A stretch of DNA of 44,155 nt from a bacterium (lineage in GTDB: Bacteria > Zhuqueibacterota > Zhuqueibacteria > Oceanimicrobiales > Oceanimicrobiaceae), in NCBI GenBank assembly GCA_037446635.1, contig JBBIIG010000034.1, positions 1 to 44,155 on the forward strand. Direction: 5' to 3'. This document shows positions 12,410-35,056 of the stretch, piece by piece; position 1 is the first letter of the stretch, and the number at the start of each line of letters is the position of its first letter. A program made the translations under genes and the position numbers. The notes beneath the pieces were generated by a model. The model made no database searches. It saw only the letters and a list, made by a program, of their open reading frames with translations, and was not told the origin of the DNA.

Positions 12410-12563
12410 AAAAGACTATCTCGACAGGTTACAGGAGGTTTACCCACATGAAGAAGGAGCGAATTTTGCTGCTTGCGCCAATAATAGCTTGCCGGTCAGA
12501 ATTGACACCTCATTGATCTTCACGGTGAAGATTAATCGGTGGATTTTCTTCCGACGTATGTAA
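12369..12563 (+). pseudogene. N-terminal remnant of the cognate type II restriction endonuclease
   Basis: Overlaps the MTase end. MNPWARKTLRLVYEKDYLDRLQEVYP resembles the N-terminus of Tsp45I-family enzymes as I recall them; the ORF degenerates after ~30 codons. Confidence 0.5.
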
Positions 12564-15500
12564 CGTATGCTACCGGCATGGTTAGCAGAACTAACAATGT
12601 CGAGCTCACCAACCCACCAATCGTAGCCAACGCCAGCGAATACCAGATGCTCTCATCCGGGCGGACAAAAAGAACCAGCGGCAACAGACCCAACACAGTC
12701 GTGGCGGTGGTCATAAAAATCGGACGCGCCCGTTCCACCGAACCTTGAATCACGGCATCAACAACCGACAAACCCCTCTGGCGAAGCATGTTGATGTGAT
12801 GTACCAGCAGAATGGCATTATTTACAACGATGCCCCCCAGCAAAATTACCCCAATGTAGGCGGAGCGATCAAAATTGGTATCGGTGAGATAAAAAATCAG
12901 AAACACGCCAATGAGCGCCATCGGCACGGTCAACATGATAATGAACGGTTGTTTCAACGACTCAAACAATCCTGCCATTATCATATAAACCAGAAACACG
13001 GCCAACATCAGTACTCCGTAAATCTGGCGTTTTTCTTCCTCCTGCAAAAAGAAGAATGAGGCGCGCTCGAGCTTGTAACCCGGCGGCAGTTGTGTATTTT
13101 TCACGACGCTTTCCACCAACCGGTCGCCGAATTTCCACGGCCCGCGATATTCAAAACTAATACCGCGCACGTACTGCTGCTCCTGGCGTACGATCTGTGC
13201 CAGTACTTTACGCTCACCAATCTGCGCCACCTCGCTCAACCGCACCGGCTCTTTGCTCGAGGTTTGAATAACGACCCGGCGCAAATCCTCGAGGTCAAAA
13301 TCGGAGTGCCCGGCCATCTTCATCCGGTACTCCGTCTCCTTCCCAGCAATTTTCAGCCGCTGCCAGTCGAGATTTTCCCGCAAGTAATTTTGTACCGCGT
13401 TCAAAACTTCTGTGGCTGACAAATGAGCTCGCTGCAACTTCTCTCGATCTACAGCGAGCACCATCTCGAACAAATCATCCTTTTGCCGGAAGCCGAACGA
13501 GCTGTTGGTATCCACGTCATGCACCCGCGGACTGCGCGCTAATTTTCGGCCCACTTCCTCTGCAAACCGTTTCACTTCATTATAATTGTAACCTAAGACT
13601 TGCAATCGATACTGCGGGGCAGCGCCGCCGCCGCTGTAAAACCCCTGGCCATAGCCATAGACCCCCACCGCTGGTCCACCGATTTGCACCGCCAGTTCGG
13701 TGAGCTGCTCTTTAAGTATGAGCGGAAAGATGGAGCGCCGAACCTCTGGCGGAAAGGTGACGTCCATGCGGGCGAATTCGGGCGCCACCGTTGTGAACAC
13801 CTTGGCAACTTTTGCATTTCCAACAACGCTGGCTTCAAACGTGCGCACGATTTCATCAGTACGCTCAATTTCCGAACCCGTTGGCATGTTGATGAACACC
13901 ACAATGTACGTGTCTTCACCCCACGACCAGATCCGGCCTTTGGCGACAAATTTCTCAAACAGATAGTAGCTGCCCGCGAACAAGCTGATCGCCAGAAAGA
14001 TAATGAAAAATCGATGGCGCAGCGCCCAGGCCAACAACCGCGGATAAAAGCCAAATGACGAGTTCTTCAATCCTCCGCCTTCAATCTTCCATCCTCGAGC
14101 TTCCTTTCTCTTCATCACCACCGCTGCCAGACTGGGGGTAAACGTAAATGCCACCAACAGCGACGCCAGCAGCGCCAGCCCAACAGCGATAGTAAACGGC
14201 AAATAATAAATTCGCAGTTCGCCGGTCGTGTAAAGGAAAGGGATAAAAACCGCCACCGTCGTCAGCGTCGAGGCGATAATCGGCAGGGCCACGTCGCGGG
14301 CCCCTTCCTCCGCAGCCGCCGACACGTCAGCGCCGCGTTCATGGTAGCGAGAAATACTGTCCAGCACCACGATGGAGTTGTCCACCATCATGCCAAACCC
14401 CAACGCCAGTCCGGCCAGCGTCAACAAATTCAATCCGATGCCGGCAAAATAGAAGAAGTTGATGGTGAGCAAAACCGAGAAAAAAATGGTGGCGAGAATG
14501 ATCAGCGGGCTGATTACGTTTCTCAAAAAAGCCAGCAGCACGAGAAAGATCACGGCAACGCAGAATAGCGAGCGCGAAGCCAAATTGGTAAGCTCGCGGC
14601 GGATTGGCTCACTCTGATCGCGTTCTTTGATCAGCCGCACCGCGGGTGGAAAATTTTCTTGTAGTTCCGCCAGGCGCGCAAAGATGCGGTCGGCCACGAG
14701 AATAGTATTCGCGCCGGCTTCCTTTTCAATATTAATCACGATGGCCGGCTGGCCGTCGATGCGGGTTAGGTTGCGCGGCTCGCTGTATCCGGAGTAAACC
14801 CGTGCCACGTCCCGCACCCGCACCACTGCGCCGTTGTTGGCCGAGACGATCATCTCCGAAATTTCATCGACGCGGTTCAACGGGTTGTCGATGATGAGAT
14901 CAAATTGGGTGGAGCCTTGATAAATTCTGCCCGCTGATGCCCGCACGTTAACATCTCGCAGCGCCGCCGCCACTGCCTGCTCCGATAAATCAAGCGCGCG
15001 TAATTTCGTGGGATCGAGCTCGATTTGAAGCTGCGGATCCTGTCCCCCCAGAACCTGCACATCGGCGACACCCTCCACGGCCAACAGGGGGCCACGCAAC
15101 CGTTCCAGTGCAAAACGCCGAATCTCCGGCAGCGACAACGGACCCGTGAGATGGTAAGAAAGAAAGCGCCCGGACTGAAATTCTTTGGGCACATACTTTT
15201 GAATCTGCGGCGGCTGCACGCCAAAGGGCAACTCCTCTTTGAGCAGCGACAGTTTTTCGCTCAGCTCCAGCGCGGCAAAATCCATATCCGCGCTGCGGGC
15301 AAATTCGATGTTGACGGTAGAGCGGCCTTCCTCAGAGATGGAATCGACTTTTTTAACATGCGCGACGGTGTTGGCCGCGGCTTCAACGGGCGAGGTCACC
15401 AACGCTTCGATGGTTTCAGGCGACGTGTTTGGCCAATATGTGGCAACGGAAAGTTTGGGGAAGCTCACATCCGGAGTGAGCTCCAGCGGCAGCCGGCTCA

Positions 15501-15585
15501 GCGACACGAGGCCCGTGAAAAGAATGGCGAGAAAAAACATGGCCACAGCCGTAGGCCGGCGGATGGCGAGGGAGATCAGGTTCAT
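12532..15585 (-). CDS. RND efflux permease subunit 2 (AcrB/MdtBC-like), ~1017 aa
   Basis: Start reassigned to MNLISLAIRRPTAVAMFF (ATG at 15585). GMMVDNSIVV, GIVVNNAILLV and RARPIFMTT motifs. Confidence 0.92.
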   Translation of the reverse strand: MNLISLAIRRPTAVAMFFLAILFTGLVSLSRLPLELTPDVSFPKLSVATYWPNTSPETIEALVTSPVEAAANTVAHVKKVDSISEEGRSTVNIEFARSADMDFAALELSEKLSLLKEELPFGVQPPQIQKYVPKEFQSGRFLSYHLTGPLSLPEIRRFALERLRGPLLAVEGVADVQVLGGQDPQLQIELDPTKLRALDLSEQAVAAALRDVNVRASAGRIYQGSTQFDLIIDNPLNRVDEISEMIVSANNGAVVRVRDVARVYSGYSEPRNLTRIDGQPAIVINIEKEAGANTILVADRIFARLAELQENFPPAVRLIKERDQSEPIRRELTNLASRSLFCVAVIFLVLLAFLRNVISPLIILATIFFSVLLTINFFYFAGIGLNLLTLAGLALGFGMMVDNSIVVLDSISRYHERGADVSAAAEEGARDVALPIIASTLTTVAVFIPFLYTTGELRIYYLPFTIAVGLALLASLLVAFTFTPSLAAVVMKRKEARGWKIEGGGLKNSSFGFYPRLLAWALRHRFFIIFLAISLFAGSYYLFEKFVAKGRIWSWGEDTYIVVFINMPTGSEIERTDEIVRTFEASVVGNAKVAKVFTTVAPEFARMDVTFPPEVRRSIFPLILKEQLTELAVQIGGPAVGVYGYGQGFYSGGGAAPQYRLQVLGYNYNEVKRFAEEVGRKLARSPRVHDVDTNSSFGFRQKDDLFEMVLAVDREKLQRAHLSATEVLNAVQNYLRENLDWQRLKIAGKETEYRMKMAGHSDFDLEDLRRVVIQTSSKEPVRLSEVAQIGERKVLAQIVRQEQQYVRGISFEYRGPWKFGDRLVESVVKNTQLPPGYKLERASFFFLQEEEKRQIYGVLMLAVFLVYMIMAGLFESLKQPFIIMLTVPMALIGVFLIFYLTDTNFDRSAYIGVILLGGIVVNNAILLVHHINMLRQRGLSVVDAVIQGSVERARPIFMTTATTVLGLLPLVLFVRPDESIWYSLALATIGGLVSSTLLVLLTMPVAYVTYVGRKSTD

Positions 15586-15649: not shown

Positions 15650-15677
15650 TTGACAAAGTCGGCTTTTTTTTTATGAT
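15650..15677 (+). promoter_or_regulatory. Sigma70-type promoter of cassette 0 with T9 run in spacer
   Basis: TTGACA(15650-15655), 16-nt spacer, TATGAT(15672-15677); downstream RBS AAGGAG and ATG at 15755. Confidence 0.7.
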
Positions 15678-15754: not shown

Positions 15755-15956
15755 ATGCGTAAGAGGCTTGCAGTTCTAGTACTGTTGGTGGCGTGTCTAT
15801 CTCTCACCGTTGTACCTTTTGGCCAAGTCTGACCTTCATGCTTGCTGCTCCAGGAATCAACTCGTTTCATTGGATAAACCGCAGAATGACAAAACAGATG
15901 TTCATCACGGTGAAAAGGTCATCGTTGCTTTTTCGCCGATAGCTTGGGCGTGGTAA
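15755..15956 (+). pseudogene. Disrupted small secreted peptide gene (cassette 0), absent from ORF track
   Basis: Strong RBS; MRKRLAVLVLLVACLSLTVVPFGQV then TGA at 15830. Removing one T from TTTT at 15817-15820 gives ...VVPLAKSDLHACCSRNQL... ending at 15956. Confidence 0.6.
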
Positions 15957-16105
15957 AGTCAAAGTTTGCACGAAGTTCCAAACCGGCTTTGATTTTGCTG
16001 AACGAGGGTGTAGTCGAAAAAACCGCCATTGTTGGGGATCCCGAACAACTAGATGAAGTGCGAGAAATATTGGAGATTTTTAGAAAACGGCCAGAGGAGC
16101 TATGA
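15914..16105 (+). pseudogene. C-terminal remnant of a thioredoxin-fold protein
   Basis: Start-less open frame CFFADSLGVVKSKFARSSKPALILLNEGVVEKTAIVG...RPEEL*. It resembles the ends of the 22145 and 28058 proteins (FYDSLNFV...PTTMLLD), and its TGA overlaps the next ATG (ATGA). Confidence 0.55.
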
Positions 16106-17292
16106 ATACTAATTCGATGTTGCTCTTTTTGTTGCTGGGGAATTTGGGCATTTTTTGTTTGCAATCATGTGCTTCAGAGGAAAATCAGCAAGCAAAGGAA
16201 AGCGTTCCTGCTAACAACAAGGGTAAATGGTTAGAGCAAGGATTGAACGTTCATTTGAAAAAGGTCAAAGAGGTAAGGCTGGACACCGCGGGGGATGGTT
16301 TTATGATTAGTCTAACTGGCTTAGTCCACAGAAATGACGGGTATTACGCGATTGGAGGAACAATTCCAGAGATCATCATTTATGACTCAACTGGCGCTTA
16401 CCTAAAGACGATACGGGTGAATCCTTCTCCTGCGGGACTTTGTTCCTACAGGGATATCGCGATGTCGCCCAATGGGACGATTTTTATCAAAGATATTGAA
16501 GCATCCGAAATTCTTGAAGTGGATTTGAATGGAGACGTACATAAAAGATTCGCAACAAGTGAGAATGATAGCAATCAAATCGCTTTTGGCGGACTTGAAG
16601 TCGTTGAAACTTCAACGCAGACGATGATTTTCTCGACCATATTCCAGTGGCTGGATCCCTCAGAAATATTGACAAAAACCCTAATGGTCGGCCATTTTGA
16701 TCAGAATGGTAAACTAACGCAACGATTCGCGAACCACGACCCGCTTTACGCTGAATACAATCTGTTACAATTCCAGCCATCGACGTTTACGATTTATAAA
16801 GATAGACTGTACTTAATAGAAGAGGCCCTACCGTTCGTAAGAGTTTACTCGCTGAACGGGGAATTAGTCAACAGATTCGGCGAGTACGGGATGCATCAAC
16901 GGCCTCTAAGGAAAATGACTACAAACATTTCTCCTGAAGAGCAATATGCTCGAGGTTTCAACTATACAAGATATGATGCCGTAGAAATCCTTCCAAAGGT
17001 CCTTGGCCATGATGACGCCCTTTTGGCCGTAACGTATCATAACCTTGACCCATCCGAAGAAAATATAAAAAGAAGCGTCGGTCTCCAAAGTGAATCTTAT
17101 TTGATGGTCTATTCCTTGGAAGGAGAATTGTTGGTTAACGATCTGCAGCTCCCGGGCTTCGGCTATCTATTGGATGTTAACGAAGACTCTGATTTAATCA
17201 TTCTCCTAAATTACGAGTCAGAGAACCGCCTGCTTGGCCACTTCCGTTTAGCTGTTGAGGCAGCAGAATCGGCGAACACCTCATCCCTCTAA
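16102..17292 (+). CDS. 6-bladed beta-propeller-type lipoprotein
   Basis: Lipobox LQSC; NHL-like blades (IIIYDSTGAYLKTI, VRVYSLNGELVNRFG, MVYSLEGELL). Confidence 0.75.
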   Translation: MNTNSMLLFLLLGNLGIFCLQSCASEENQQAKESVPANNKGKWLEQGLNVHLKKVKEVRLDTAGDGFMISLTGLVHRNDGYYAIGGTIPEIIIYDSTGAYLKTIRVNPSPAGLCSYRDIAMSPNGTIFIKDIEASEILEVDLNGDVHKRFATSENDSNQIAFGGLEVVETSTQTMIFSTIFQWLDPSEILTKTLMVGHFDQNGKLTQRFANHDPLYAEYNLLQFQPSTFTIYKDRLYLIEEALPFVRVYSLNGELVNRFGEYGMHQRPLRKMTTNISPEEQYARGFNYTRYDAVEILPKVLGHDDALLAVTYHNLDPSEENIKRSVGLQSESYLMVYSLEGELLVNDLQLPGFGYLLDVNEDSDLIILLNYESENRLLGHFRLAVEAAESANTSSL

Positions 17293-17310
17293 GCTATCTC
17301 CCAAATCGCA

Positions 17311-18300
17311 ATGACTATTAGATGCACTGGTTTTTTCTCCATCAGTATTCTCCTTCTGATCGCAAATTGCAGCACTAATAGAACAAACTATCAATTTCTT
17401 AAAATTCGCGAAATTCCGATACAGCTACCGCACGGTCAAGCTGTCTGCCGAATTTTCGACATCGCACAGGATACTTCCGGTCGGTTTTATCTGGCGGATT
17501 TTTCCTGTCATACAATTTGGGTGGTTAACGGAGAGGGGCACTTCATTAGCCGGATCGGATCACAGGGACAGGGACCGGGTGAATTAGGGGGGCCAGTCAG
17601 TATCGCCATAAAAGGAGATACGCTGGCTGTGCTTGAAGACCAGAACGATCGCATATCCTTTTTCGATTTGAAAGGTGAATTTGCTTACTCGTTTCCCCTT
17701 TCCGGAGGGCAATTCAGTGGACTTGAACTAAGCCATGGCGACGAGCTGATTGTTAGCGAATCGCTTGGCCTGCAACATTTCGACTTGTATTCCGTGGCCG
17801 GCGAGAAACTGACCAGTCGCCCTGCCGTTCCAACAACAGCCGTAGTGATGCCCCTTCAAATTGCCGGTGGACAAATCTCGCTTGCACCCGATGGCAACAT
17901 TCTTTTTTCATTTTTAAAAAAGTATGAGATTGTCAAAATGAATTGGCAGGGAGAAATATTGACCAGCTACACGGCATCGCCGCCCGGCTATATCGCACCG
18001 GACCTGAGCAGCCGTGAGGCGTTGATGAAACAATCCGAGTGGGCCGTAGTGGGATTGCCGTTGCAGGTTCAGGACAAAATACTCGTTCAATGGTCGGCTC
18101 GGGATGTCAAAGAAACGGGCGAAACCTCGTGGAAACATTTTGTGGATTTGTTCACGGTAGATGGCAACCCCATCAAATTAGCCATTCCAGCGCCCAACTA
18201 TTTTCTTATGGCAAAAGACGAGCTTCTATACTCGCTGACAGAAGATTCAGTGTATGAATCTAGTAATCCAGCAATAATAGTATATCAATTGGTAGAATAA
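17311..18300 (+). CDS. 6-bladed beta-propeller (NHL-like) lipoprotein
   Basis: Lipobox IANC; GHFISRIGSQGQGPGEL motif; terminal NPAIIVYQL. Confidence 0.85.
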   Translation: MTIRCTGFFSISILLLIANCSTNRTNYQFLKIREIPIQLPHGQAVCRIFDIAQDTSGRFYLADFSCHTIWVVNGEGHFISRIGSQGQGPGELGGPVSIAIKGDTLAVLEDQNDRISFFDLKGEFAYSFPLSGGQFSGLELSHGDELIVSESLGLQHFDLYSVAGEKLTSRPAVPTTAVVMPLQIAGGQISLAPDGNILFSFLKKYEIVKMNWQGEILTSYTASPPGYIAPDLSSREALMKQSEWAVVGLPLQVQDKILVQWSARDVKETGETSWKHFVDLFTVDGNPIKLAIPAPNYFLMAKDELLYSLTEDSVYESSNPAIIVYQLVE

Positions 18301-18363: not shown

Positions 18364-21300
18364 CTAACGATCCCCTCTGAGACCTTTCCGAGCAGCCACC
18401 AAACTATACACTACCGGCACCACCACTAACGTCAAAAACGTCGCGGAGAGCAAGCCGCCGCTAATCGCCACCGCCAGCGGACGCTGCAGTTCCCCGCCCG
18501 GCCCGAAGCCCAACGCCAGCGGCAGCAAACCCAGCACGGTGGTGAACGTTGTCATCAAAATCGGGCGCAGCCGTTTTTGGCCCGCTACCAAAATGGCGTC
18601 GTGCACCGAAGCGCCGCGCCGCCGCTCCTGTTTGATGAAATCCACTTTGATCACCGCATCGTTGTCCACAATCCCCACCAGCACCACCACGCCGATCAGC
18701 GACATCACATTGAAACTCTGGCCGGTGACAAACAGCGACAGCACCGCGCCAATAGCCGCCAGCGGAATGGTAGTTATAATAATAAAAGGATGAATAAGAG
18801 ATTCAAACTCCGCCGCCAGAATCATATAAACTAAGGCGGCGGCCAACAGGATGGCCAGAATTAAACTGCGAAACGAGCGCCGCATTTCCTCGCGGGCGCC
18901 GCCAACGGTGATTTGGTAATCATACGGTCGCTCGATACTGGAGATGCTTTGTTCAATATCTCGCACCACCGAACTGTAGCCGCGGTCGCTGACACTGCCA
19001 TAAAGCGCCATCTGCCGTACCTGATTTTCCCGATGAATTTCGGTGGGACCACGAGACGGTTCGGCCCGAATCAATTCTCGCAGGGGAACGGAATGGTTGC
19101 CAAAGCGAATCCGCGCGTTCAGCAAATCGGCCAGCTCATCCCGCGCCGACACTTCGGGGCGCACGACGATATCGATCTTGCGGTCGAAGTCCGTGAACTG
19201 GGTGGCAACTGTTCCCCGCATGGTGTTTTGCACGAAATTCGCAACCAGTCGCGCGGAGAGGCCATAGCGGCCAGCGGCTTCGCGGTCAATGGTGATGCGA
19301 ATTTCCGGTCGCCCTTCTTTGTAGGAGCTGCGAAGGTCAACCAGCCCCGACACCTCACGAACGCTTTCTTCAACTTTCTGGAGCAAACCATTCATCAAGC
19401 CCAGATCGCTGCCGCTGATTTTTATGGCTACATCCGCTTCCACAGCGTCCAAATACTGGCTGAGCAAATTCTCGCTGGCGGCCAGAGTGATTTTCGCAGC
19501 AGGCATGCGCTCAAACTCAGGCCGTAGTGAAGCCATGACTTCATCGCTGCTTTTTGAGCTGCGCGGATTCAGCCGAACCTGCAGCCGCGCCCGATGGAGC
19601 GCCGTCTCCTCCAAAAGCAAGCCGCTTTGGTCTGAAGCCAGCCCAATGTTGGAAAACACCGTCGCCACTTCGGAGCGACGCAATAGCAAGCGCTCCATCT
19701 CGCCCACTACCTGGCTGACGCTTTCCAAACTTGTGCCCGGCGGCATTTCAACTTTGATGACGAATTCTTTTTGATCCACTTTGGGCATGAGCTGCCGGTC
19801 GATGACCAAACTCAAAAGTCCGGAGATAATCAAACTCAAACCCGTAATCAGGATCACCTTCGCGCGATTGCGCAGCGCCCACTTCAGCAGGGTTTCATAT
19901 TTTTGGGAAAACAGGTTAAACATACGATCGAATGTTTGCAGCACCGGGCGCCAAATTCGGCCCAAGATTTTCACCAAGCCCTCCAACCAAAAACGAGCCA
20001 GCGCTCCCAGCCAACCGCCGAGCCATTTCCAGAATTTTATGAATGGACGAATTGTGAATTCCATGATTTTTTGAGATAGATCCGAAAGGCGAGTTTTGCG
20101 GCGCTCGAAAAGACTGGAATAGATGCGAGTTTCTGGCGCGGTTTTGATTTCGTCGCGATCCCTTTTGCGGAAAAAATGCGCGGCCAGCACCGGCAGCAGA
20201 GTCAACGAGACCACCAGCGACGCCAGCAGCGCGAACGTCACCGTCATATATTGATCGCGAAAAAGTTGGCCCGCGAAACCCTGTACATAAATAATCGGAA
20301 AGAAAACCGCGATGGTCGTAAGGGTTGCAGCCGTGATGGGCATGGCCACCTCGCGAGCGCCCGCAATGGCCGCGGAACGGACATCGGCGCCTTCTTCGCG
20401 CAAACGAAAAATGTTCTCCAAAACCACGATGGAGTTATCCACCAGCATGCCCACCCCCAGCGCCAGTCCGCTCAGCGAAATCATATTCAAGCTGATGCCG
20501 CCAAAAAACATCATTATAAATGCGGCGAGAATCGAAATGGGAATGACAAGGCCGATGTTGATGGGGTGACGGACATCGCGCAAAAACAGGAACAGCACCA
20601 CAAACGCCAGTACGGCGCCCACACTCACCGCTTGTTCGACATTGCCGATGGCAGCCGAAATGAACTCCGCCTGATCCGCCGCGACGGCGATGTTCACCTC
20701 CGGATGCTCACGCCGCAACTGCTCCAGCACCGCATGAACGCGCCGAGATACTTCCACCGCATTGGCCTCGGCCTCTTTGGTGATGATCACGCCAATCGCC
20801 TCCTGCCCGTTGAAGCGGGTGATGGACTCGCGCTCGCGAAAGCCGTCCACTACCTTGGCGATATCCTTCAACGTGATCACGGCACCGTTGCCATTATTGG
20901 AGATCACCACGGCTTGCAACTCTTGCGTATCCTGAAACTCGCCAAGAGTGCGCAAGGCATAACGGTAGAGGCCCTTTTTGATCGTGCCGCCGGGCAGGCT
21001 GCGATTGGCGTTGGCGAGCGCTGTTGCCACCTCATCGAGCGAAACGCCGAGCGCGGTGAGTTTGCGGTTGTCGACCTCCACCTGAATTTCCCGCTCCAGA
21101 CCGCCGGTCACCGCCGCCAGCGCTACTCCCTGAATTTGCTCGAGACGGCGTTTGATCACGTTGCGAGTGAATTCTTTCAATGGCACGAGGTCGCCGCCGG
21201 TGACGGCCAGCGACATTACCGGCAGGGCGCGGGGATCGAGGCGTAAAATCGTGGGGCGTTCGGCTTCCTGCGGCAGCGTCCAGCGCAGGTTGTCCAATTT

Positions 21301-21630: not shown

Positions 21631-21729
21631 GTTTGAATTTTAGGACTCGTCTCGCAAAAAATAAGAGAAGCGCGGGGAAAAAGCAAAAAATTCTTGACAA
21701 AAGCTGTTTTTTTATTTTTATCTTCAGTG
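21371..21729. repeat. Copy 1 of the 'permease 5' end + divergent promoter' repeat (other copies ~23910-24270 and ~31393-31882)
   Basis: Near-identical to 23910-24270 through ...TTCTTGACAAAAGCTGTTTTTTTATTTTTATCTTCAGTG; the third copy is more diverged. Confidence 0.92.
21694..21724 (+). promoter_or_regulatory. Putative promoter of cassette 1
   Basis: TTGACA(21694), 19-nt T-rich spacer, TATCTT(21719); conserved in three copies. Confidence 0.55.
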
Positions 21730-21814
21730 TACCAACTATTGATCATCCTCGCCAAGTTCAGAACTTTTCGCAGTCCAACAATCAACCAAGCTAATAACCA
21801 AAAAGGAGGCCATC

Positions 21815-24234: not shown

Positions 24235-24265
24235 TTGACAAAAGCTGTTTTTTTATTTTTATCTT
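24235..24265 (+). promoter_or_regulatory. Putative promoter of cassette 2
   Basis: Identical to 21694-21724. Confidence 0.55.
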
Positions 24266-24354
24266 CAGTGCATCAACTATGATTATCCTCTCGCCATCTC
24301 AGAAGCTTCATGGTCTACAATCACCAAAACAAATAACCAAAGGAGGTTAGTCCT

Positions 24355-26406: not shown

Positions 26407-26549
26407 TCTTCGCTCGCAAAATTTTTTAGATTATTTTAAAAAATTGTGGGAGAAATGCAATATAAGTTTGTCTATACAGAATAAAAGGTCTCATCGTTTC
26501 GCACTTCCTCTCTGTGATATACTGGCAATCTCAAAGTCGGGGAGAAATC

Positions 26550-27329
26550 ATGGATGAACTGTCTGTCTGTTTTTCTGCACTCAAGCGCAGTTCAGACTTC
26601 CTAAGGGCGACGTTGCAGAACCATTTCAAAACCATCACGATAAACTCCGACAGCGAATTATGGGCTTTCTTAAAGACTCATCACCTGTTTTCTCTAGTTA
26701 TGTCTACCCGCCTCCACAACAAAAGCGACATGCGACTAATTAGAAACCTTTGTGCTGCCATGCCACGGTTGCCCACTGTTCTCTACGGCCAGGTAGGCAG
26801 CGAAGAATTGGCGTTTCAACTGGCCAAAACGGGCGTCGAGCATTTTATCCCCGAGGGCAACCTGGACGAGCTGCTCGCTACTTTACATCACTTGAAAGAA
26901 CAAGCCACCTTTCGCATTGACCTGCGGGACTTTGGGATTGACCTGAGCCAGAGTAACGACTACTGGGTGCGACAATTTTTTGATGTGCTTTTGAAAGAGC
27001 ATCGATATATTCATCTTACTACGGTGCAGCAGATAGCCAATCAGCTCGGCATCACCCCCGTTCATCTGGATCGCTCCTTTAAGAAAGATGGTTGCCCGAT
27101 GACTCCCAAACAAATCCTCCTGTGTTTAAAAAATTATTACGCCGCTTACCTCCTCGACACCACGAGCTGGTCCACTCAAAAGATTGCTCAGTGCTGCGGC
27201 TTCAACAGTGAACATGATCTTTACAAATCCTTTGCGAAGAGAACCGGTATAACGGTGAAACAGTTTCGCAAAAGCAAGGTTTGGAGGGAGTATCCCCAGA
27301 TTATCACATCGCAATATAAATCATCATGA
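26550..27329 (+). CDS. AraC-family transcriptional regulator with degenerate receiver-like N-terminal domain
   Basis: GGAG RBS then ATG at 26550. Double HTH: IANQLGITPVHLDRSFKK...IAQCCGFNSEHDLYKSFAKRTGITVKQFR. Divergent from the MFP. Confidence 0.85.
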   Translation: MDELSVCFSALKRSSDFLRATLQNHFKTITINSDSELWAFLKTHHLFSLVMSTRLHNKSDMRLIRNLCAAMPRLPTVLYGQVGSEELAFQLAKTGVEHFIPEGNLDELLATLHHLKEQATFRIDLRDFGIDLSQSNDYWVRQFFDVLLKEHRYIHLTTVQQIANQLGITPVHLDRSFKKDGCPMTPKQILLCLKNYYAAYLLDTTSWSTQKIAQCCGFNSEHDLYKSFAKRTGITVKQFRKSKVWREYPQIITSQYKSS

Positions 27330-28057: not shown

Positions 28058-28663
28058 ATGCTCAAAGATAAGTATAGAAACGTTGCACAAAATTTTCTAT
28101 TCTTTCTTTTGATTGGATTATTAGGCGGTAATTTGTGGCTACTGAAAGGTAAGCAGTCCAACGATAGCAAAAGCAAAAGTGCCCGCTCACCTGCAAAATG
28201 GACTCCGTCTTACATCCAATTCCCGGAGCACCTCACAGATGCAATGACTGGAGACAGCATAAACTTGGATCCTATCATAAATAATCGGATTAAGGTGTTG
28301 ATTCTTTTAAACACTGGCTGCTATCGATGTATTGAAGATCTGCCGAAGTGGGAAGAGTTTATAGGGGAATTTCCGAATCAAGATCAAATACAGTTCGTTT
28401 TTATCGCGCAAGCCCCTACACGTAAATATCTGGAGTATATGATAACACGTCGGGCGCAAATTCATCAGCCGGTATTTTATGATTCACTGAATTTCGTCGG
28501 AAGAACAAATCATATCCACGAGATTCCCACGACTATGTTGCTCGACCAAAAGAACAAGGTTGTCCTGGCCGGATCCCCCATTCTGCATCCAGAGCTGAAA
28601 ACAATGTATCACGACAATATTGAAAATCTTCTGTATAGAAAGGATGGGACTGAAGCCTGGTGA
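28058..28663 (+). CDS. Membrane-anchored TlpA/AhpC-TSA-like redoxin, CYRC
   Basis: KVLILLNTGCYRCIEDLPKWEE; IPTTMLLDQKNKVVLAGSP. Confidence 0.85.
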   Translation: MLKDKYRNVAQNFLFFLLIGLLGGNLWLLKGKQSNDSKSKSARSPAKWTPSYIQFPEHLTDAMTGDSINLDPIINNRIKVLILLNTGCYRCIEDLPKWEEFIGEFPNQDQIQFVFIAQAPTRKYLEYMITRRAQIHQPVFYDSLNFVGRTNHIHEIPTTMLLDQKNKVVLAGSPILHPELKTMYHDNIENLLYRKDGTEAW

Positions 28664-29733
28664 AATTAAAATCCTTGCGTTTGGCGACGGCGATTCTCCT
28701 CGTTTTTTCTAACTGTGCCGATAGAGAAAATGATTTGCCGACGGTTGTAAATGAAAACAGCCCTCTAAGCAGGATATCCCTTGAGTTAATCGATTCGATT
28801 GGTTCCGATGATCCGGCCAATGAAGATTACATATTCGGCATCATCTATAGCCTACAAGTTGATGACAGTGGTAATTTATACGTTTTAGATCGAGCCTTCA
28901 AAAACATCAGAGTCTTTGCTCCCAATGGAAAATTTCTTCGCGGTTATGATTTGCCCAAAGGAAAGGGGCCGGGTGAATTCATGAGGCCAGTATCTATGGC
29001 GTTATCGTGGGATAAAAAGCACATCTATGTTGCCGATGCTGAGCTAAGAAAACTAACCATACTCGACCTGAATTTCAATTTTATTTACTCCTTTGCAGTA
29101 AACAACTACTACTTCGAAGTCTTCGGTGGGCCGAATAACACCGTCATCGTTGTGTTTGACCAACTTTACTTTAAAAAGAAGGATATCATCGTACATATTG
29201 TAACCGAAACAGGCAAAGTGATTGCACAATTTGCAACGCCGCACAGGGATATGGTCAAACTGAGAGATAGGAGACTTCAATTTGTGACATATACTTTTTT
29301 TGTCCCATCAGATTCTCTGCTTTTCCTTGCGCATAGCTATCCCTATGACATAAGTGTATATGAACCGGGTGGCAACCTTAGACATCGCTTTGCGCACAAG
29401 CTGCCATTTTGGGGGGAGGAGATCAGGAAAGGAGAATTTCTTCTTCCGAGACGGACTATAAGCGGCTTGGCTGCCACCAATGATTCATTGCTGCTCGTTT
29501 TTACATTCGACAATCAGACCGAACAATCAAATCTTTATGCGTACGACTACCATGGAAGAAGCCGGGGAGAAATACTGCTTTCCGATTTCAAAATCGGTAG
29601 GCTTCCATTAACTGTAATGTCGATAATTTATGACGATCAAATTCTCTATGTGAAAACTGACGCTCCGTTTCCAAAGATACTTAAGTTCAAAATCTCCCAA
29701 CAACTCCAAATAACTAATCAGGAGGTGAACTAA
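28660..29733 (+). CDS. 6-bladed beta-propeller (NHL-like) lipoprotein
   Basis: Lipobox FSNC; VDDSGNLYVLD...IRVFAPNGKFL...KGKGPGEF; terminal FPKILKFKI. Confidence 0.85.
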   Translation: MKLKSLRLATAILLVFSNCADRENDLPTVVNENSPLSRISLELIDSIGSDDPANEDYIFGIIYSLQVDDSGNLYVLDRAFKNIRVFAPNGKFLRGYDLPKGKGPGEFMRPVSMALSWDKKHIYVADAELRKLTILDLNFNFIYSFAVNNYYFEVFGGPNNTVIVVFDQLYFKKKDIIVHIVTETGKVIAQFATPHRDMVKLRDRRLQFVTYTFFVPSDSLLFLAHSYPYDISVYEPGGNLRHRFAHKLPFWGEEIRKGEFLLPRRTISGLAATNDSLLLVFTFDNQTEQSNLYAYDYHGRSRGEILLSDFKIGRLPLTVMSIIYDDQILYVKTDAPFPKILKFKISQQLQITNQEVN

Positions 29734-30041
29734 TGAAAAAGAAAAAGCTGTTGGTAGGCCTTGGTCTCATTGGTCTATGTTTTGTACTAAGCTTGGTTTG
29801 GGAGTACACCAATCCGGCATTAGCCGCCGTCGATTGTTGTACAAGCTGTACAGATTATTGCTTCTGTGAAAACAGCAACCATGCCTATGCATGTGCGACC
29901 TACCCCTGTGGCACGCCTCCCTGCATTGGGGTCGGTACCAAATGTTGCCTGCCCTGGTACCCTAGTGGCGGTGGTGGTGATGACGGCGGCGAAGGCGACG
30001 ATGAATGTGATGTTTACTTTCCTCCACCCCACTGCGTGTAA
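29733..30041 (+). CDS. Secreted 12-cysteine peptide
   Basis: RBS AGGAGG; signal peptide ending ALA; mature region has 12 Cys and a Gly/Asp linker. Confidence 0.85.
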   Translation: MKKKKLLVGLGLIGLCFVLSLVWEYTNPALAAVDCCTSCTDYCFCENSNHAYACATYPCGTPPCIGVGTKCCLPWYPSGGGGDDGGEGDDECDVYFPPPHCV

Positions 30042-30250: not shown

Positions 30251-30784
30251 ATGCGCAAAGGACCCGTTGTCAGTTTTAAGGTCAGGCAAGCCAAACCGCT
30301 TGCTCCAATATTAAAAGGTCTATCGAATATCAGTAAATTTCTTTTTGGTAGAATAGATTTTTCTTCGCAAACCAGCTCTGCGATTTTGAATTCACGGGAA
30401 GAAGCTTTCCTTCGTGGAAACGATGCTATCCAGGTAGAACATATACTCTTCTCCCTTCTCAAATTAGGAAAGGGAAACATAGTCAACGTTTTAGAAAACC
30501 TGAACTGCGACATAAATGCCTTACAGCAACAAATTGAATGGCAGATGGACAAGTCTCATAAAAAAGAGAAACACTCCAATTTGCCATTCTCAACTCATGC
30601 TAATAATGCCATTAAATCTGCGTCATCAATTGCAAATGATTTCAAAAGCAAAGAAATTGAACCCGAACATCTACTTCTGGGAATCGTGAAAACGGCAAGT
30701 GGTGAGCTTACATCAATCTTCCGACGATTTAATCTCACGTATGACAATTTGTATAGCGAGCTAAAAAAGATTCAATCCAACTAA
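30251..30784 (+). CDS. Stand-alone Clp N-terminal (double Clp-N) domain protein
   Basis: SREEAFLRGNDAIQVEHILFSLL and LPFS...IEPEHLLLGIV repeats; no AAA+ domain. Confidence 0.8.
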   Translation: MRKGPVVSFKVRQAKPLAPILKGLSNISKFLFGRIDFSSQTSSAILNSREEAFLRGNDAIQVEHILFSLLKLGKGNIVNVLENLNCDINALQQQIEWQMDKSHKKEKHSNLPFSTHANNAIKSASSIANDFKSKEIEPEHLLLGIVKTASGELTSIFRRFNLTYDNLYSELKKIQSN

Positions 30785-30792
30785 GCCCGCAA

Positions 30793-31194
30793 CTATCCAA
30801 AAATCTTCGGATCGGTCGCATTGGCAAGAGCTTCTTCGCGGGAAATGCGGCCTCGTTCGAGGAAGGTTTTGAGCGCCTGATCCATCGTCTGCATGCCGTA
30901 AGCGCCGCCGGTTTGAATGGCGGAAAAAATCTGGTGCGTCTTTTCTTCGCGGATAAGATTGCGCACCGCCGCGGTGGCAATCATAATTTCGTGCGCGGCC
31001 ACGCGACCGTTGCCGTCTTTGGTGGGTAGCAGCCGCTGCGCCACGATGCCCTGTACCGCGTTGGCAAACATGGCGCGAATCTGTCCCTGCTGCTCCGCCG
31101 GGAAAACATCGACGATGCGGTTGACGGTTTCCGCGGCGCTCATGGTGTGCAAAGTGGCGAAGACGAGGTGGCCGGTTTCGGCGGCAGTGAGCGC
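30793..31194 (-). pseudogene. pilT: C-terminal fragment of type IV pilus retraction ATPase PilT
   Basis: ALTAAETGHLVFATLHT, AVRNLIRE and GMQTMDQAL present; Walker A/B region missing; upstream 200 nt is unrelated. Confidence 0.85.
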
Positions 31195-31392
31195 CTTTTT
31201 TTCAACATCTTCAAAGAGTTGTTTCCTTGAAATCTTTAATTCTTGCATGGGCCTGCCTTTGTAGATTTCAAGCAGTTTCTCCCAAATCATTATAAGAAGC
31301 GCCCGGCGGCGCTCCTGTTTGAGTATCTTTGCGTATATCCTCACCGGCCTGGTGACAGCGTGGGTTGCCATCATTGCGATATGGGCCGAACT

Positions 31393-31781
31393 TTAAGATG
31401 GTGGGCCGCTCGGCTTCCGGTGGCAGCGTCCAGCGCAGGTTGTCCAATTTCTCCCGCAAGTTGAGCGCGGCGATGTCCATGTTCGTGCCCCACAGAAACT
31501 CGAGGGTCACCAGCGACACGCCTTCTTTTTGAAACCGACGTCACCCGCCGAACACGCGGGACGGTGCTCACCGCTTCCTCGATGGGAACGGTAATTAACC
31601 CCTCGACTTCGATGGACGGGACATTGGGATAGGAGGTCCAAACGGTGAGCTTGGGATAAGAGACATCCGGCAGCAAGTCCACCGGCAGGCGCCTGAGAGA
31701 CACCACACCTAACATGATCACCGCCAGAAAAAACATGGTGGTGGCTACCGGTCGGCGTACCGAGATTTCAGATAAAGACAT
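31393..31781 (-). pseudogene. 5' fragment (~129 codons) of RND permease 1 with frameshift
   Basis: MSLSEISVRRPVATT...; extra T at 31526-31530 (T5 versus T4 in the intact gene); homology ends at ERPTIL. Confidence 0.92.
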
Positions 31782-31845
31782 ATTGGGATTTCAGGACTGG
31801 TTTTCGCAAAAAATAGGAGAAGTGCGCGAAAAAGCAAAAAAATTC

Positions 31846-31877
31846 TTGACAAAAGCTGTTTTTTTTTTTTTTATCTT
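31846..31877 (+). promoter_or_regulatory. Putative promoter of cassette 4 with T14 tract
   Basis: TTGACA(31846), then AAAGCTG and T14 (31859-31872), with TATCTT at 31872; spacer 20 nt. Confidence 0.55.
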
Positions 31878-31957
31878 CAGTGAATAAACTATTGAAAATT
31901 CTGTCGCCAACTCAGAATTAAAATAAAAACTAAATTCCTTAATGAGGAGAGTCTAAA

Positions 31958-32182
31958 ATGAAAACGTTTAAAATATTAACTTTATTCATTTTCATGTTAT
32001 CATTTATATTGCTGTTATACCCCATTGAGCCTGTCTATGCACAGAATCCTTGCGCTTGTGTATATTGGTGTTGGTCGTGGCCTGACAGGTGTGAAGGTCG
32101 TCATCCTAATTCGTGCTGGATTGGAACATATAATGAATATCAATGTCCCGGTATTTGCTTCAACAATTGTTACCCCGTTTAA
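31958..32182 (+). CDS. Secreted 8-cysteine, Trp/Tyr-rich peptide
   Basis: RBS GAGGAG; signal ending VYA; mature QNPCACVYWCWSWPDRCEGRHPNSCWIGTYNEYQCPGICFNNCYPV; stem-loop at 32199-32240. Confidence 0.85.
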   Translation: MKTFKILTLFIFMLSFILLLYPIEPVYAQNPCACVYWCWSWPDRCEGRHPNSCWIGTYNEYQCPGICFNNCYPV

Positions 32183-32289: not shown

Positions 32290-33999
32290 TTGAGATATAA
32301 TTCTGTGAAGTCAAACAAAGTCTGGATTACAGGTTTTATTCTATCTTTTCTATCAATAATCCTCGTCATTGCCTATAGACTAGGTTGGCTAAATCTCTTC
32401 TCCTATGGGGTACACAACTACAAGAAAGCCAAGCAGCAATTGATTTCAGAGGTCGTTTCCCAAACCTTTCCGGATTTTCAAGTGTACACTGAAAATGGGG
32501 ATTCACTTGGAATTTCTGAGGTTATGGACGAAAAAATAAATTTGATACTTTTTTTGGGACCGGGTTGCATACCGTGCAATAGCCAAGTCATTGAAACAGT
32601 AGCAGAATTTCACAAAGTGAATCATGAACCGAAGATTGTCGCCCTTGTGTACAAAGGAGAGCATGAATTTGTCCACCTACGAACACTGGCTGAAACCAAG
32701 TTCAAAGGCCTTGTAGCAAAATTCAGTTCCACCAATAAGTTTGTAATACCCACTTTTCCTTCAGTTTATCTCTTTGACAAAGAAAGTCGGAAGATTGTTG
32801 ACGTGTTTTTTCCAGATGCTAACCGCATTGAAGATTTTCAAGATTTTCTAAAGAATGTGACTGAGCATACTCACCGAAGTTATCCCCAAAAAGTCACACC
32901 ACAATTTGCTGCTAATCGTGATTATTCAAGAAAGAGAGTCGAAACCATAAACCAGATGTTTTCTAGAAAGAAAGAGCAGCTCACGCTCGTTAAGAGAATA
33001 AAATTGGAGTATAACTCCGAAAGCTTAATTTCGGATGTCAGAGCGTTTGAAATCGGGAAAGATGGCGAAATCTTTATTGGGCACAGTTCCGGACAAAAAG
33101 TCACTATTTTTGGCTCGGAGGGAAATTATATGAAGACCCTTACCGTCGAAGATATTTATGGCCCGGGTAGAACAAACGCAGACTGCTCTCGAATTTTTTC
33201 TGTTGGAAAATCCCAAGTGGGTTTTCTTTTTATTGGATTCGTTACAGATTTGCCCCTTTATGATTTGCAGAAGAGCGAATTCAGTTTTATGCCATTGAAC
33301 AATGTAACAACTGATCTTATTTTTGTTCCGGAGCTAAGAAAGAAAAGGCTTCCCCGTAATAGCCCGGTGCTGGATGCGACTTTCGTTGATGACGACCATG
33401 TTTATCTGCTGAGTTTCCCTCAGCGAGTACTTGGGCAGGAAGGTTCGCCTCAAGTATTTGAGCTAGAAAACAATACCATTGTGAATAGTTTTGCCGCGTT
33501 TCCCAATTTACGGTATCCAAACTTTTCCCAACGCTATGCCCCCCAGCGTGCTCGCATCATTTGGTATGATAACATCTTGTACACCTACTGCCCTCTCGAA
33601 AATCGAATTTACCGATTTGATGCCACAGGGAATCGTCTAGACGATTTGGTTTACCCGATGGGCTTCATCAACCAGCCCGATGGTGATGCGCCAAATGATC
33701 CTCGTGAATGGCACAAATATGAGATTGGAAACGCCGACCTTTTCAATGGCATCTTTCCCACAAAAATTGAGAACAAGGCCTACGTGATTATCGCCCGGCA
33801 GAGGGACAGGTCTTTCTTTCTGGATGTGTTCGATGATAAGGATATGCTTACGGAGTCGATCGAGATTACCGGCTACTTCGAAGAGAATCGCATTGCTGAA
33901 CACAACGGACACTTTTATGGCTATATGTGGCCGGAAGTTGGTGTTCAGCGGTTCGAGGTCACGGGTAACCCTGAAGTTGTTATTTACTCTCTAAAATGA
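32290..33999 (+). CDS. Fusion of TlpA-like redoxin (CIPC) and 6-bladed beta-propeller
   Basis: TM anchor; FPDFQVYTENGDSL...LILFLGPGCIPC...FPSVYLFD; then propeller blades ending GNPEVVIYSLK. Start codon uncertain. Confidence 0.8.
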   Translation: MRYNSVKSNKVWITGFILSFLSIILVIAYRLGWLNLFSYGVHNYKKAKQQLISEVVSQTFPDFQVYTENGDSLGISEVMDEKINLILFLGPGCIPCNSQVIETVAEFHKVNHEPKIVALVYKGEHEFVHLRTLAETKFKGLVAKFSSTNKFVIPTFPSVYLFDKESRKIVDVFFPDANRIEDFQDFLKNVTEHTHRSYPQKVTPQFAANRDYSRKRVETINQMFSRKKEQLTLVKRIKLEYNSESLISDVRAFEIGKDGEIFIGHSSGQKVTIFGSEGNYMKTLTVEDIYGPGRTNADCSRIFSVGKSQVGFLFIGFVTDLPLYDLQKSEFSFMPLNNVTTDLIFVPELRKKRLPRNSPVLDATFVDDDHVYLLSFPQRVLGQEGSPQVFELENNTIVNSFAAFPNLRYPNFSQRYAPQRARIIWYDNILYTYCPLENRIYRFDATGNRLDDLVYPMGFINQPDGDAPNDPREWHKYEIGNADLFNGIFPTKIENKAYVIIARQRDRSFFLDVFDDKDMLTESIEITGYFEENRIAEHNGHFYGYMWPEVGVQRFEVTGNPEVVIYSLK

Positions 34000-35056
34000 A
34001 ATGAATAAGGTCAGCCCCATGTGTCGATCTCCCGAAAACAGCGCGTTTGTACCGTAATGATTTCGCCCGGCCTCGAAACGTCTCGCCGGGATAGGCGGGA
34101 AACGTCACCTCGGCTTTCCGCCCTTCCTCAATTAGACCAATCTCGCTCTCCAGCACTTGCGCTTCCACTTCCATTTGCGACAAATCTACCAACTTAAAGC
34201 ATTCCTGACCCGCGGAAATCTGCTGCCCAGTTTCCACTTGTAAATCTGCCACTACGCCAGAAAACGGCGCGCGGATTTCCGTGTAGCTCGAATTCAACTC
34301 AGCCCGCTGTAGGGCTAACTCGGCGGCGGTTAAACCGGTGCGGTGCGCCAACAGCTCATCGCGTTTCTTTCCCGCCAACACCTGTGCGGTTTCGTACTTG
34401 AGCTTCGCCCGCAAGAATTCATCTTCCGAGACTTGCCCTTGTTCATATTTCTCTCTTATTTCCAAGAATTTGTTCTCGGCGTCCTTCAACTCATCGAGAC
34501 GGACATTTCTTTTATTCCGTTCTTCCTGTTCGCCAACTTCCGCCGTTGATTCCGCCGGCATTGGCTCCACGCTCTTCGCCTTGCGCTCTTCGCTCTCTCC
34601 ACCTCGCTTCTCCTCACGCTGCAACATGCCGAAATCCACTTGCGCTCCCAACAACCTATCTTGCGCTTCCGCCAAAGCCAGGCGATACTCCCGGTCATCC
34701 AACTTGAGCAACAGGTCGCCCTCGCCAACCGATTGCCCCTCGCCAACCGCCAGCTGCACAATAGTCCCGCCAATTTTAGTGGACATGACAATCTCACGCA
34801 GCGCGCGCGTTTGCCCCGTGGCCGAGATGCGCATCACCAAATCACCAATCCGGGCAGGCATCGCCTCTACTGCAACAGCCGTTTCCTGAGCTGTAAAATC
34901 GGCGGCGTCAGGTTCGTTGGTCGAACCCGAGGCCTTACCGCTGAGCCGTGGTTGAAGCTGCCAAAACATTACCAAAGCAATGGCCGCGCTGACAAGGCCG
35001 AAGGTGATTAGTTGCAGGCGCCGGCGGGATGATCCCCAATTATTCTCGCCTCTCAT
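33980..35056 (-). pseudogene. 3'-truncated paralog of the RND adaptor (MFP)
   Basis: Very similar to 25048-26406 until GETFRGR (~34055); lacks the last ~110 aa; tail runs into the convergent propeller gene. Confidence 0.9.

Follow-up and report, generated by a model that had tools for sequence, protein, structure and literature searches.

The window analysed here is the 44,155-nt contig JBBIIG010000034.1 of assembly GCA_037446635.1, whose genome (G000; 4,640 kb, 97% complete) appears, judging from its relatives, to be a MAG. As an initial annotation had described, five plus-strand cassettes (15755-18300, 21815-23858, 24355-24897, 26514-30784 and 31958-33999) are interleaved with separating minus-strand pump genes (RND_A, 12532-15585; RND_B, 18364-21630; MFP, 25048-26406), and a Pfam scan of the 39 window ORFs gave zero matches to the lanthipeptide, YcaO, rSAM, MNIO and C39 genes said to be absent. 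That annotation's five cassettes and recurring module held, whereas its reading of ORF 21815 as Cys-rich did not, and its proposed defensin-like action is disfavoured. It had not listed two truncated RND_B 5' copies, a truncated second MFP, AraC, ClpN and a pilT 3' fragment. The features are as follows.

12532..15585 (−): RND permease A, 1017 aa; ACR_tran E 2e-195; true start at 15585 by homologue alignment
15650..15677 (+): sigma70-like divergent promoter of cassette 1; 11/12 matches, top site in 19.7 kb
15755..15956 (+): broken microprotein gene with signal peptide, frameshift and CC
15931..16105 (+): redoxin C-terminal remnant; redoxin HMM E 1e-6 (Z=1)
16102..17292 (+): propeller 1, lipoprotein-like; propeller HMM E 5e-18; 38% to the L088 cassette propeller
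17311..18300 (+): propeller 2, DUF5128, lipoprotein-like; Pfam and propeller HMM
18364..21630 (−): RND permease B, 1088 aa; ACR_tran E 2e-252; 32% to permease A
21652..21749 (+): shared divergent promoter region, copy 1, TTGACA inside
21815..22012 (+): microprotein 1, 65 aa, hydrophobic leader, 2 core Cys
22145..22834 (+): membrane-anchored redoxin, CSSC; ResA/StoA E 6e-6, redoxin HMM E 3e-11
22776..23858 (+): propeller 3, DUF5128, lipoprotein-like; Pfam and propeller HMM
23875..24346 (−): truncated RND_B 5' copy with promoter copy 2; pS 0.147, pN 0.018
24355..24897 (+): lone redoxin-like protein, CTFC; weak HMM match
25048..26406 (−): periplasmic adaptor (MFP), intact; TIGR01730 E 9e-60
26514..27329 (+): AraC-family regulator; Pfam; homologue adjoins a cassette in L053
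27511..28044 (+): MauE (DsbB-like), CPCFG motif; PF07291 E 1.8e-16
28058..28663 (+): membrane-anchored redoxin, CYRC; redoxin HMM
28660..29733 (+): propeller 4, six-bladed NHL-like, lipoprotein-like; Pfam DUF5128, AF2 fold
29733..30041 (+): microprotein 2, 102 aa, signal peptide, 12 core Cys, acidic
30251..31195 (mixed strands): ClpN-domain gene (+) and pilT 3' fragment (−)
31371..31917 (−): truncated, frameshifted RND_B 5' copy with promoter copy 3; pS 0.172, pN 0.022, mosaic
31958..32182 (+): microprotein 3, 74 aa, signal peptide, 8 core Cys
32290..33999 (+): 569-aa fusion of a redoxin (CIPC) to a propeller; redoxin and propeller HMMs, AF2
33980..35056 (−): second MFP, 3'-truncated; amino acids 83% identical to those of the intact MFP; pS 0.41, pN 0.105

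Cassette 1 resembles, through propeller matches, the cassettes of loci L088 and L182, which hold a peptide, a redoxin and two propellers. The broken peptide claimed at 15755 was found as a frameshifted signal and CC remnant, followed by the equally expected redoxin remnant, a C-terminal piece at 15931-16102 (redoxin HMM E 1e-6). An element resembling the promoter at 15650..15677 lies upstream of a cassette in locus L085. Cassette 3 consists of a single redoxin and nothing else, and in cassette 4 the start of microprotein 2, with a strong RBS, overlaps the stop of propeller 4.

Microproteins, propellers and folding helpers

Three ORFs had been called Cys-rich peptides, which was correct for 29733 (12 core Cys) and 31958 (8), but not for 21815, because it has just 2 core Cys. 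A detector with set criteria (an ATG start, an RBS, a hydrophobic N-terminus and four or more Cys) returned 3 ORFs in the whole of G000, two of them 29733 and 31958, so these two lie beyond chance; relaxed to 2 Cys, it yielded one credible extra peptide (L045) and one false-looking hit per group. The homologue search for microprotein 2 recovered only the query among 11 candidates, Atlas searches with microproteins 2 and 1 gave leads all below 0.9, microprotein 1 had no family match, and none of 32 related peptides reached a Pfam or NCBIfam cut-off. NVEALA (PF14055) was matched in Pfam by neither the three window nor the 32 related peptides; an NVEALA search of 61 genomes was silent everywhere, control genomes included, and the Atlas lead scored 0.75.

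The window peptides carry net charges of 0, −9 and −1 (core regions, part of the leader included), and across 30 peptides 24 were net negative and 2 positive (none above +2). Since the peptides are mostly anionic, the defensin-like action is disfavoured. Cys counts were even in 23/30; in six related pairs nearly all Cys were retained, with core pN below pS in five of the six, and positive selection was not demonstrable, synonymous sites being near saturation. For 18 of the 30, the distance to a propeller is no more than 100 bp, and similarity among peptides co-varies with that among propellers (Mantel rho 0.15, p 0.0016), a weak correlation that co-inheritance alone may explain.

Five propeller lipoproteins had been proposed, and five propellers are present, although the one in 32290 is a fusion that by eye seems membrane-anchored. 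DUF5128 (PF17170) scored above the Pfam cut-off in 3/5 (17311, 22776 and 28660), a fourth (32290) was assigned by fold and the fifth (16102) by the custom HMM alone; this HMM, trained on other loci, matched 5/5 (E 5e-18 to 7e-43). AF2 models of 28660 (pLDDT 84.5) and of 32290 in its C-terminal half match six-bladed NHL/DUF4221 folds; the redoxin half of 32290 was of low confidence and the domain orientation unreadable. Across 87 propeller sequences, GxGPGE was the sole conserved element and a catalytic set was absent. We considered the propeller as a peptide-modifying enzyme on the strength of a weak PAL match (E 0.017), and rejected this as conserved catalytic residues are absent. Locus L170 holds eight propellers and one peptide, and in L167 a propeller sits alongside a leader-type rSAM precursor. 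On balance, we favour binding of the cassette peptide as the propeller's role.

The predicted MauE was confirmed at 27511 (PF07291, 61 bits against a cut-off of 27). Its CxC-FG motif is intact (CPCFG) and kept in the window MauE and in 11/11 training MauEs; this motif is the MauE active site, and the same 2026 preprint reports that MauE replaces DsbB, i.e. is an oxidase (bioRxiv 10.64898/2026.03.05.709764). DsbB had zero matches in G000. As DsbD was found there, the redoxins might instead act as reductases or isomerases. Among the CxxC redoxins previously named, the redoxin HMM has its two best genome-wide matches in CSSC and CYRC, and weaker ones in CTFC and CIPC (E = 3e-5 and 2e-8, Z=1). All three pairwise fusions exist: redoxin-propeller in the window, MauE-redoxin in L168 and MauE-propeller in L177. 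Oxidative peptide folding by MauE and a redoxin would fit the preprint's DsbB replacement, and the cassette is very probably a folding unit.

The pump clade, the module in relatives and cassette loading

We surveyed the neighbourhoods of permease homologues, with counts based on six-frame ORFs. The anticipated enrichment was strongest for propellers (41/90 clade loci vs 1/42 paralogous pump loci), and weaker for peptides of at least 4 Cys (12/90 vs 0/42, with one of the 12 calls, L059, apparently spurious); before tree-based regrouping, the peptide counts were 11/88 vs 1/44 (p 0.06, not significant). With same-phylum controls alone, propeller enrichment gave p 0.10, or 0.02 for loci flanked by 3 kb or more, and such p values are overstated because the loci are related. 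In both permease subtrees, the loci linked to propellers group as a single clade (support 1.00/0.99), and 8 loci have propellers between pump genes. MauE and redoxin each occurred in 5/90 clade loci, 32/41 propeller-bearing loci had no detected peptide, and the high-GC loci held peptides in 3/52 and propellers in 26/52. The clade was seen in KSB1, Calditrichota and Gemmatimonadota.

Both permeases fall far below the MdtB/MdtC equivalogs (356-468 bits, cut-offs 1584/1774) and below CusA/CzcA TIGR00914 (328 and 520 bits, cut-off 701), and permease B retains Asp and Glu in TM4. The window encodes no outer-membrane factor, with about nine elsewhere in G000. We know of no RND that exports a folded 5-7 kDa protein. 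As the near-complete genomes G023 and G117 hold cassettes but no detectable pump, peptide export via the RND is put forward as a plausible reading of the genomic association; that the pump moves peptides is a tentative proposal at slightly less than even odds.

The module, comprising a Sec-signal Cys microprotein, MauE, a CxxC redoxin and a six-bladed propeller, recurs across the phylum. Thirteen MauE+DUF5128 pairs (L160-L169, L180-L182) were picked without regard to peptides, and 10/13 had a detector-positive peptide, against 3 per 4,640 kb in G000. DUF5128 matches were found in 26/27 pump genomes (median 4) vs 28/52 others (median 1), and visible MauE+propeller cassettes in 11/27 vs 3/52. 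Complete cassettes also occur in G023 (97% complete) and G117 (94%), in which neither pump clade was found. A description of the module was absent from the literature searched, most subscription journals lying outside that search.

The truncated pump-gene 5' copies have one divergent promoter in common, promoter copy 2 being identical to copy 1 over 68 nt; the pump-gene copies are 84-91% identical and their junctions non-homologous. Codon comparison showed the truncated copies to be of foreign, functional origin: their differences are mostly synonymous (and mosaic in the RND_B copy at 31371..31917), so the cassettes were probably gained through recombination with DNA of other strains. Orphan pump 5' pieces also adjoin cassettes in two other genomes (L085/L086 and L177). 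The segment 30251..31195 is 86% identical to a clpN-remnant/pilT site on contig C36, and of 133 codons in its pilT piece 24 have changed synonymously and 3 non-synonymously. A plasmid search gave no match at E 1e-100. A search of sequencing runs turned up no RNA run; two DNA runs held short, low-depth pieces of a relative that did not bridge the cassette junctions, and at such depth uncovered stretches carry no meaning.

Proposed mechanism, alternatives and significance

Our preferred model, to which we assign a probability of about 0.45, is that the cassettes, with the pump linked to them, make up a polymorphic system by which disulfide microproteins are secreted. The hypervariable Cys microprotein of each cassette would reach the periplasm by Sec, where the DsbB-like oxidase MauE and the cassette redoxin, going by the chemistry of other MauEs, would form and sort its disulfides. 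The six-bladed propeller of the cassette would bind the cognate microprotein as both folding platform and guard, and additional "orphan" propellers would broaden the range of peptides that can be caught. In the weakest step, the two-permease RND would eject propeller-delivered periplasmic cargo via a TolC-type channel encoded elsewhere, both secreting the cell's own peptide and removing foreign ones. Recombination anchored in pump-gene 5' ends would load cassettes behind the common divergent promoter, leaving truncated pump copies between them. Such a system would probably serve competition or kin discrimination, using peptides that bind proteins and do not lyse membranes. A broader picture, in which a widespread bacterial "venom-like" library of hypervariable disulfide microproteins, each folded and guarded by its cognate propeller, is exported or cleared by an RND clade specialised for propeller-borne proteins and strain-swapped by recombination into a pump-flanked promoter slot, is speculative and on the unlikely side.

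The locus could instead hold two linked, separable systems, which we regard as unlikely: pump and propellers, the latter being the pump's periplasmic binding proteins, would carry out efflux of other cargo, peptide and propeller would form a stable envelope complex like that of methylamine dehydrogenase, whose large subunit is a propeller and whose small disulfide subunit is matured by MauE/MauD, and the promoter and 5' ends of the pump would be handy anchors at which cassettes collect. The pump-propeller link without peptides (32/41 loci), the pump-free cassettes of G023 and G117 and the parallel of the gene set to mauB-E-D-A (preprint introduction) argue for this separation; however, the peptides share no catalytic motif or family, MauA is unmatched in G000 (though no positive control rang), and cassettes are far commoner in pump-bearing genomes (11/27 vs 3/52). 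It is quite improbable that the peptides, folded and exported likewise, are not weapons but strain-specific pheromones or kin signals read by regulator-coupled propeller receptors. Most cassettes inspected by eye have no sensor kinase or transmembrane receptor, a lipoprotein propeller alone should be unable to signal through the inner membrane, and orphan arrays of up to 8 propellers better suit scavenging or immunity, against which stand the neutral-to-acidic peptides (24/30 negative) and the AraC-type regulators that adjoin cassettes both in the window and at L053, with an AraC-like ORF, by eye, in L169.

A metal- or redox-buffering model would have the Cys-rich periplasmic peptides sequester soft metals in the way that bufferins or metallothioneins do, the redoxins holding the peptides in the reduced state and the pump driving out the metal. 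It would draw on DsbD in G000, the Asp and Glu in TM4 of permease B and the description of bufferins as signal-peptide Cys RiPPs with a DoxX gene (PMC12452194). We hold it very unlikely, as MNIO is absent from G000 (the control rang), MauE is an oxidase in bioRxiv 10.64898/2026.03.05.709764, mostly even Cys counts and unrelated sequences suit diversified disulfide folds, and the permeases lie far under the CusA/CzcA cut-off. We consider it extremely unlikely that assembly joined strain variants into a chimeric tandem array, or that the array is merely a hot-spot of neutral junk: the genome is apparently a MAG, as inferred from relatives, and independent reads do not bridge the junctions, yet copies only 84-91% identical with non-homologous junctions, comparable orphan 5' pieces in L085/L086 and L177, and recurrence of the module in many assemblies speak against it.

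Among known systems, MauB is a propeller, LanI/LanFEG immunity pairs a binding lipoprotein with a pump, and orphan toxin-immunity arrays are variable cassettes flanked by conserved-gene pieces; set against LanI/LanFEG and these arrays, the anchor here is the neighbouring pump gene, not a toxin N-terminus. The mauBEDA genes encode MauE, the thioredoxin-fold MauD and the small six-disulfide MauA paired with MauB (bioRxiv 10.64898/2026.03.05.709764). The window differs in lacking conserved peptide residues, in its six-bladed NHL/DUF5128 propellers, its hypervariable cassettes and its linked pump; no window peptide matched MauA (PF02975) in Pfam, nor did any G000 protein, the control there being silent, and neither MauB heavy chain nor MauG had a Pfam match among the 39 window ORFs.

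Published precedent is partial, namely Streptomyces MauE (with or without MauD) beside Cys-rich precursors, and periplasmic export of STII. E. coli STII is exported by Sec, oxidised in the periplasm by DsbA and ejected by MacAB-TolC (PMC5985334); a small Sec-exported peptide, periplasmic oxidation and a tripartite pump are also the model proposed here, whereas STII uses general DsbA and an ABC pump in place of cassette MauE/redoxin, a propeller, a two-permease RND and many unrelated peptides. Streptomyces decRiPPter clusters carry mauE, with or without mauD, beside precursors of at least 8 Cys proposed as RiPPs; these are candidates from monoderm hosts, with no propeller or RND partner named in the part of PMC7794033 available. 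Bufferins share signal-peptide Cys precursors and a DoxX-family membrane gene; however, they need MNIO (PF05114), of which G000 has 0 (control rang), and "propeller", "MauE" and "RND" do not appear in the main text of PMC12452194. The pump resembles MdtABC in having an MFP and a pair of unlike permeases (MdtB 9lyq is the nearest solved chain), but its permeases lie far under the MdtB/MdtC cut-offs, in a separate clade. SOQ1/NHLRC2 thioredoxin-NHL fusions combine both domains of ORF 32290 and are eukaryotic, conserved and outside peptide cassettes.

The proposal offers a testable role for DUF5128 propellers, extra MauE copies and this RND clade; DUF5128 is a large family on which the literature search, outside most subscription journals, found no paper. 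It also draws attention to natural microproteins stabilised by disulfides as an untapped resource, one that RiPP tools miss because a modifying-enzyme marker is absent. Entry of cassettes behind a shared promoter, with pump-gene ends as recombination anchors, may be a route of diversification. If true, the venom-like library would entail RND export of microproteins in the folded state, and a polymorphic locus of a new type that is loaded with cassettes.

The five cassettes and their surroundings

The window covers contig C34 from end to end, part of a 97%-complete genome of 4.64 Mb. It carries five plus-strand cassettes interleaved with minus-strand pump genes, confirming the arrangement claimed in the initial annotation.

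12532-15585 (-): RND permease A
18364-21630 (-): RND permease B
25048-26406 (-): MFP, the periplasmic adaptor
Cassette 1 (+): broken peptide, redoxin remnant, two propellers
Cassette 2 (+): 2-Cys peptide, redoxin, propeller
Cassette 3 (+): lone redoxin
Cassette 4 (+): AraC, MauE, redoxin, propeller, 12-Cys peptide, ClpN
Cassette 5 (+): 8-Cys peptide, redoxin-propeller fusion (32290)

Gene content, motifs and folds are established. All five proposed beta-propellers (5/5) matched a propeller HMM trained on cassettes distant from pumps, and models of two of them matched six-bladed NHL/DUF4221 folds; the five are mutually diverged, with best alignments of only 24–27% over 115–214 residues. MauB also has a propeller fold. 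A fixed peptide detector (ATG, RBS, hydrophobic N-terminus, at least four Cys) returned three ORFs genome-wide, two of them within the window. The peptide at 21815, previously called Cys-rich, has two core Cys and loses that description; the one at 15755 is indeed broken, and 15755-16105 spans both it and the redoxin remnant that follows.

A Pfam search revealed housekeeping genes (tamB, bamA, dxr, rseP) flanking the region, with a probably broken methylase at its left border and a xanthine dehydrogenase-type gene at its right. At the left island edge (11307-12409), the N6/N4 DNA methylase gene is split over two ORFs and probably broken. The GC content of cassette genes was 34–51%, whereas that of pump genes was 54–57%. 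Similar palindromes, possibly bidirectional terminators, are found where cassettes 1 (18323-18358) and 4 (~30060-30095) end. Long ORFs at 41133-42626 (+) and 38549-39373 (-) had no Pfam match, and a ~70-nt repeat at 42639-42710 also occurs on at least nine other contigs (88–97% identity).

Duplicated pump ends at the array

The window has three copies of the permease B 5′ end and the region upstream of it (89–91% identical) and two of the 5′ part of the MFP (84% identical). All three permease B copies share a TTGACA-containing divergent element, each followed by a different cassette. The truncated pump copies are mosaic; relative to the intact permease B gene their changes are mostly synonymous (pS 0.15–0.19, pN 0.02), with pS 0.41 and pN 0.105 for the MFP, and a pilT fragment differs from the genome's own pilT by 24 synonymous and 3 non-synonymous codons. 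This synonymous bias indicates that the pieces diverged elsewhere as working genes and were disrupted when they arrived or later; the anchors are of foreign origin. The arrangement is consistent with repeated insertions that used homology in pump 5′ ends as anchors, and an apparent cassette-swapping scar is visible at the array. None of the independent reads bridged the junctions; a chimeric assembly is considered unlikely. Orphan pump 5′ pieces also lie next to cassettes in two other sets of loci (L085/L086 and L177), the latter holding two RND 5′ copies, 92% alike, between its cassettes.

Window positions 30586-31195 are an 86% copy of a clpN-remnant/pilT junction elsewhere in the genome (G000:C36:24905-25517), which suggests that cassette 4 formerly stood beside pilT in a related strain.

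Recurrence of the module and its association with the pump

We fetched 13 places, blind to peptides, where MauE matches (among the matches listed) lay near DUF5128 matches. Ten of these 13 held a detector-positive peptide; the other three held a 3-Cys signal peptide, a leader-type rSAM precursor, and none. Fusions in all three pairings of MauE, redoxin and propeller were seen (window 32290, L168, L177), the last as one ORF of MauE plus propeller (L177:3937-5736). All 32 related peptides scanned fell below the Pfam and NCBIfam cut-offs. Related peptides retained their Cys, and core pN was below pS in five of six pairs, which argues that these are real genes. The peptide-folding module is real and recurrent.

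Permease B orthologues were found in 25 of the 166 other genomes of the phylum (167 in total) at E 1e-240, and close permease homologues carried the source names KSB1, Calditrichaeota, Bacteroidetes and Gemmatimonadota; the host itself probably belongs to KSB1. We gathered 27 genome and 75 metagenome orthologue loci, with 48 paralogous pump loci as controls; removing near-duplicates (14 and 4) left 88 and 44. Initial counts were 39/88 vs 3/44 for propellers, 11/88 vs 1/44 for peptides (p 0.06), 5/88 vs 0/44 for MauE and 5/88 vs 1/44 for redoxins. In a tree of 163 permeases, control loci L079 and L191 formed the sister group of the orthologues for each of the two subunits. With these two regrouped post hoc, after the tree, the neighbourhood survey proposed in the initial annotation bore out the propeller association (41/90 vs 1/42), with a weaker result for peptides (12/90 vs 0/42, one of the 12 calls, L059, looking false). 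In the initial grouping, against the 18 same-phylum controls alone, propeller enrichment gave p 0.10, or p 0.02 given at least 3 kb of flank; such p values are overstated because the loci are kin.

Of the 41 propeller-bearing loci, 23 had a propeller at most 500 bp from a pump gene of the same orientation, and eight had one between pump genes. The 27 pump genomes had 152 DUF5128 matches, vs 65 in 52 hand-picked others, and by hand count at least 11/27 vs at least 3/52 had visible MauE-propeller cassettes. The propeller is thus a steady partner of the pump, and the peptide a frequent, not obligatory one. The main rival reading takes these for two separable systems, one made of pump plus propeller and the other of peptide plus propeller. 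In its favour, 32 of the 41 loci lacked a detected peptide, and neither pump clade was found in G023 and G117, two genomes holding complete cassettes.

Several further arrangements were observed. One Cys-rich peptide is followed by eight propeller genes (L170, G080:C53), a candidate orphan-binder array, and seven propellers surround the pump in L047. Paired 4-5-Cys peptides of a distinct family (L169:4975-5461, L191:9785-10490) share a propeller type (38% identical), one set standing behind the sister pump clade. At pump locus L057:1840-4878, a UbiA-domain protein and a transglutaminase-like protein adjoin propellers. rSAM/SPASM maturases occur with propellers at L167:3102-3245, L003:1943-3442 and L056:2071-3582 (best match CcpM, below cut-off); the 4-Cys precursor at L167 is short and leader-type, meaning that propellers accompany rSAM RiPPs too. 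Read by eye, L185-L187 hold DUF5128-scoring propellers amid clustered genes that are Cys-rich and cytochrome-like; the fold probably serves something unrelated there, which raises the background counts.

Proposed route of the peptides

Across 30 peptide-propeller pairs (three window distances entered by hand), 23 peptides had an even Cys number, 24 were net negative and 18 had a propeller within 100 bp. Their acidic or neutral charge speaks against defensin-like membrane lysis and argues for protein-binding toxins or signals as their likely purpose. Peptide and propeller similarities covaried weakly (rho 0.15, Mantel p 0.0016), which could be explained by co-inheritance alone.

The most likely route is that the peptide, once translated, would cross the inner membrane via Sec, be oxidised to its presumed disulfides by MauE through the cassette redoxin, and then be held by its own propeller. 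Where a pump is present, the peptide would be ejected via an outer-membrane factor encoded elsewhere, of which the genome has about nine genes. Orphan propellers, such as the eight behind one peptide in L170 and the seven around the pump in L047, may catch foreign peptides. LanI/LanFEG immunity and orphan immunity arrays are further comparison systems.

The module resembles STII export and mau-type maturation in its working and is a member of neither. STII is exported by Sec/DsbA/MacAB-TolC (PMC5985334), mauE(+mauD) clusters that include Cys-rich precursors are proposed as RiPPs in Streptomyces (PMC7794033), bufferins are treated (PMC12452194), and SOQ1/NHLRC2 offer comparison proteins for the redoxin-propeller fusion at 32290. 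MauE substitutes for DsbB through a CxC motif according to bioRxiv 10.64898/2026.03.05.709764, which in the parts examined here does not discuss peptide cassettes. We found no description of a peptide-MauE-redoxin-propeller-RND module in the literature searched. The pump clade is strongly associated with this recurrent peptide-folding module.
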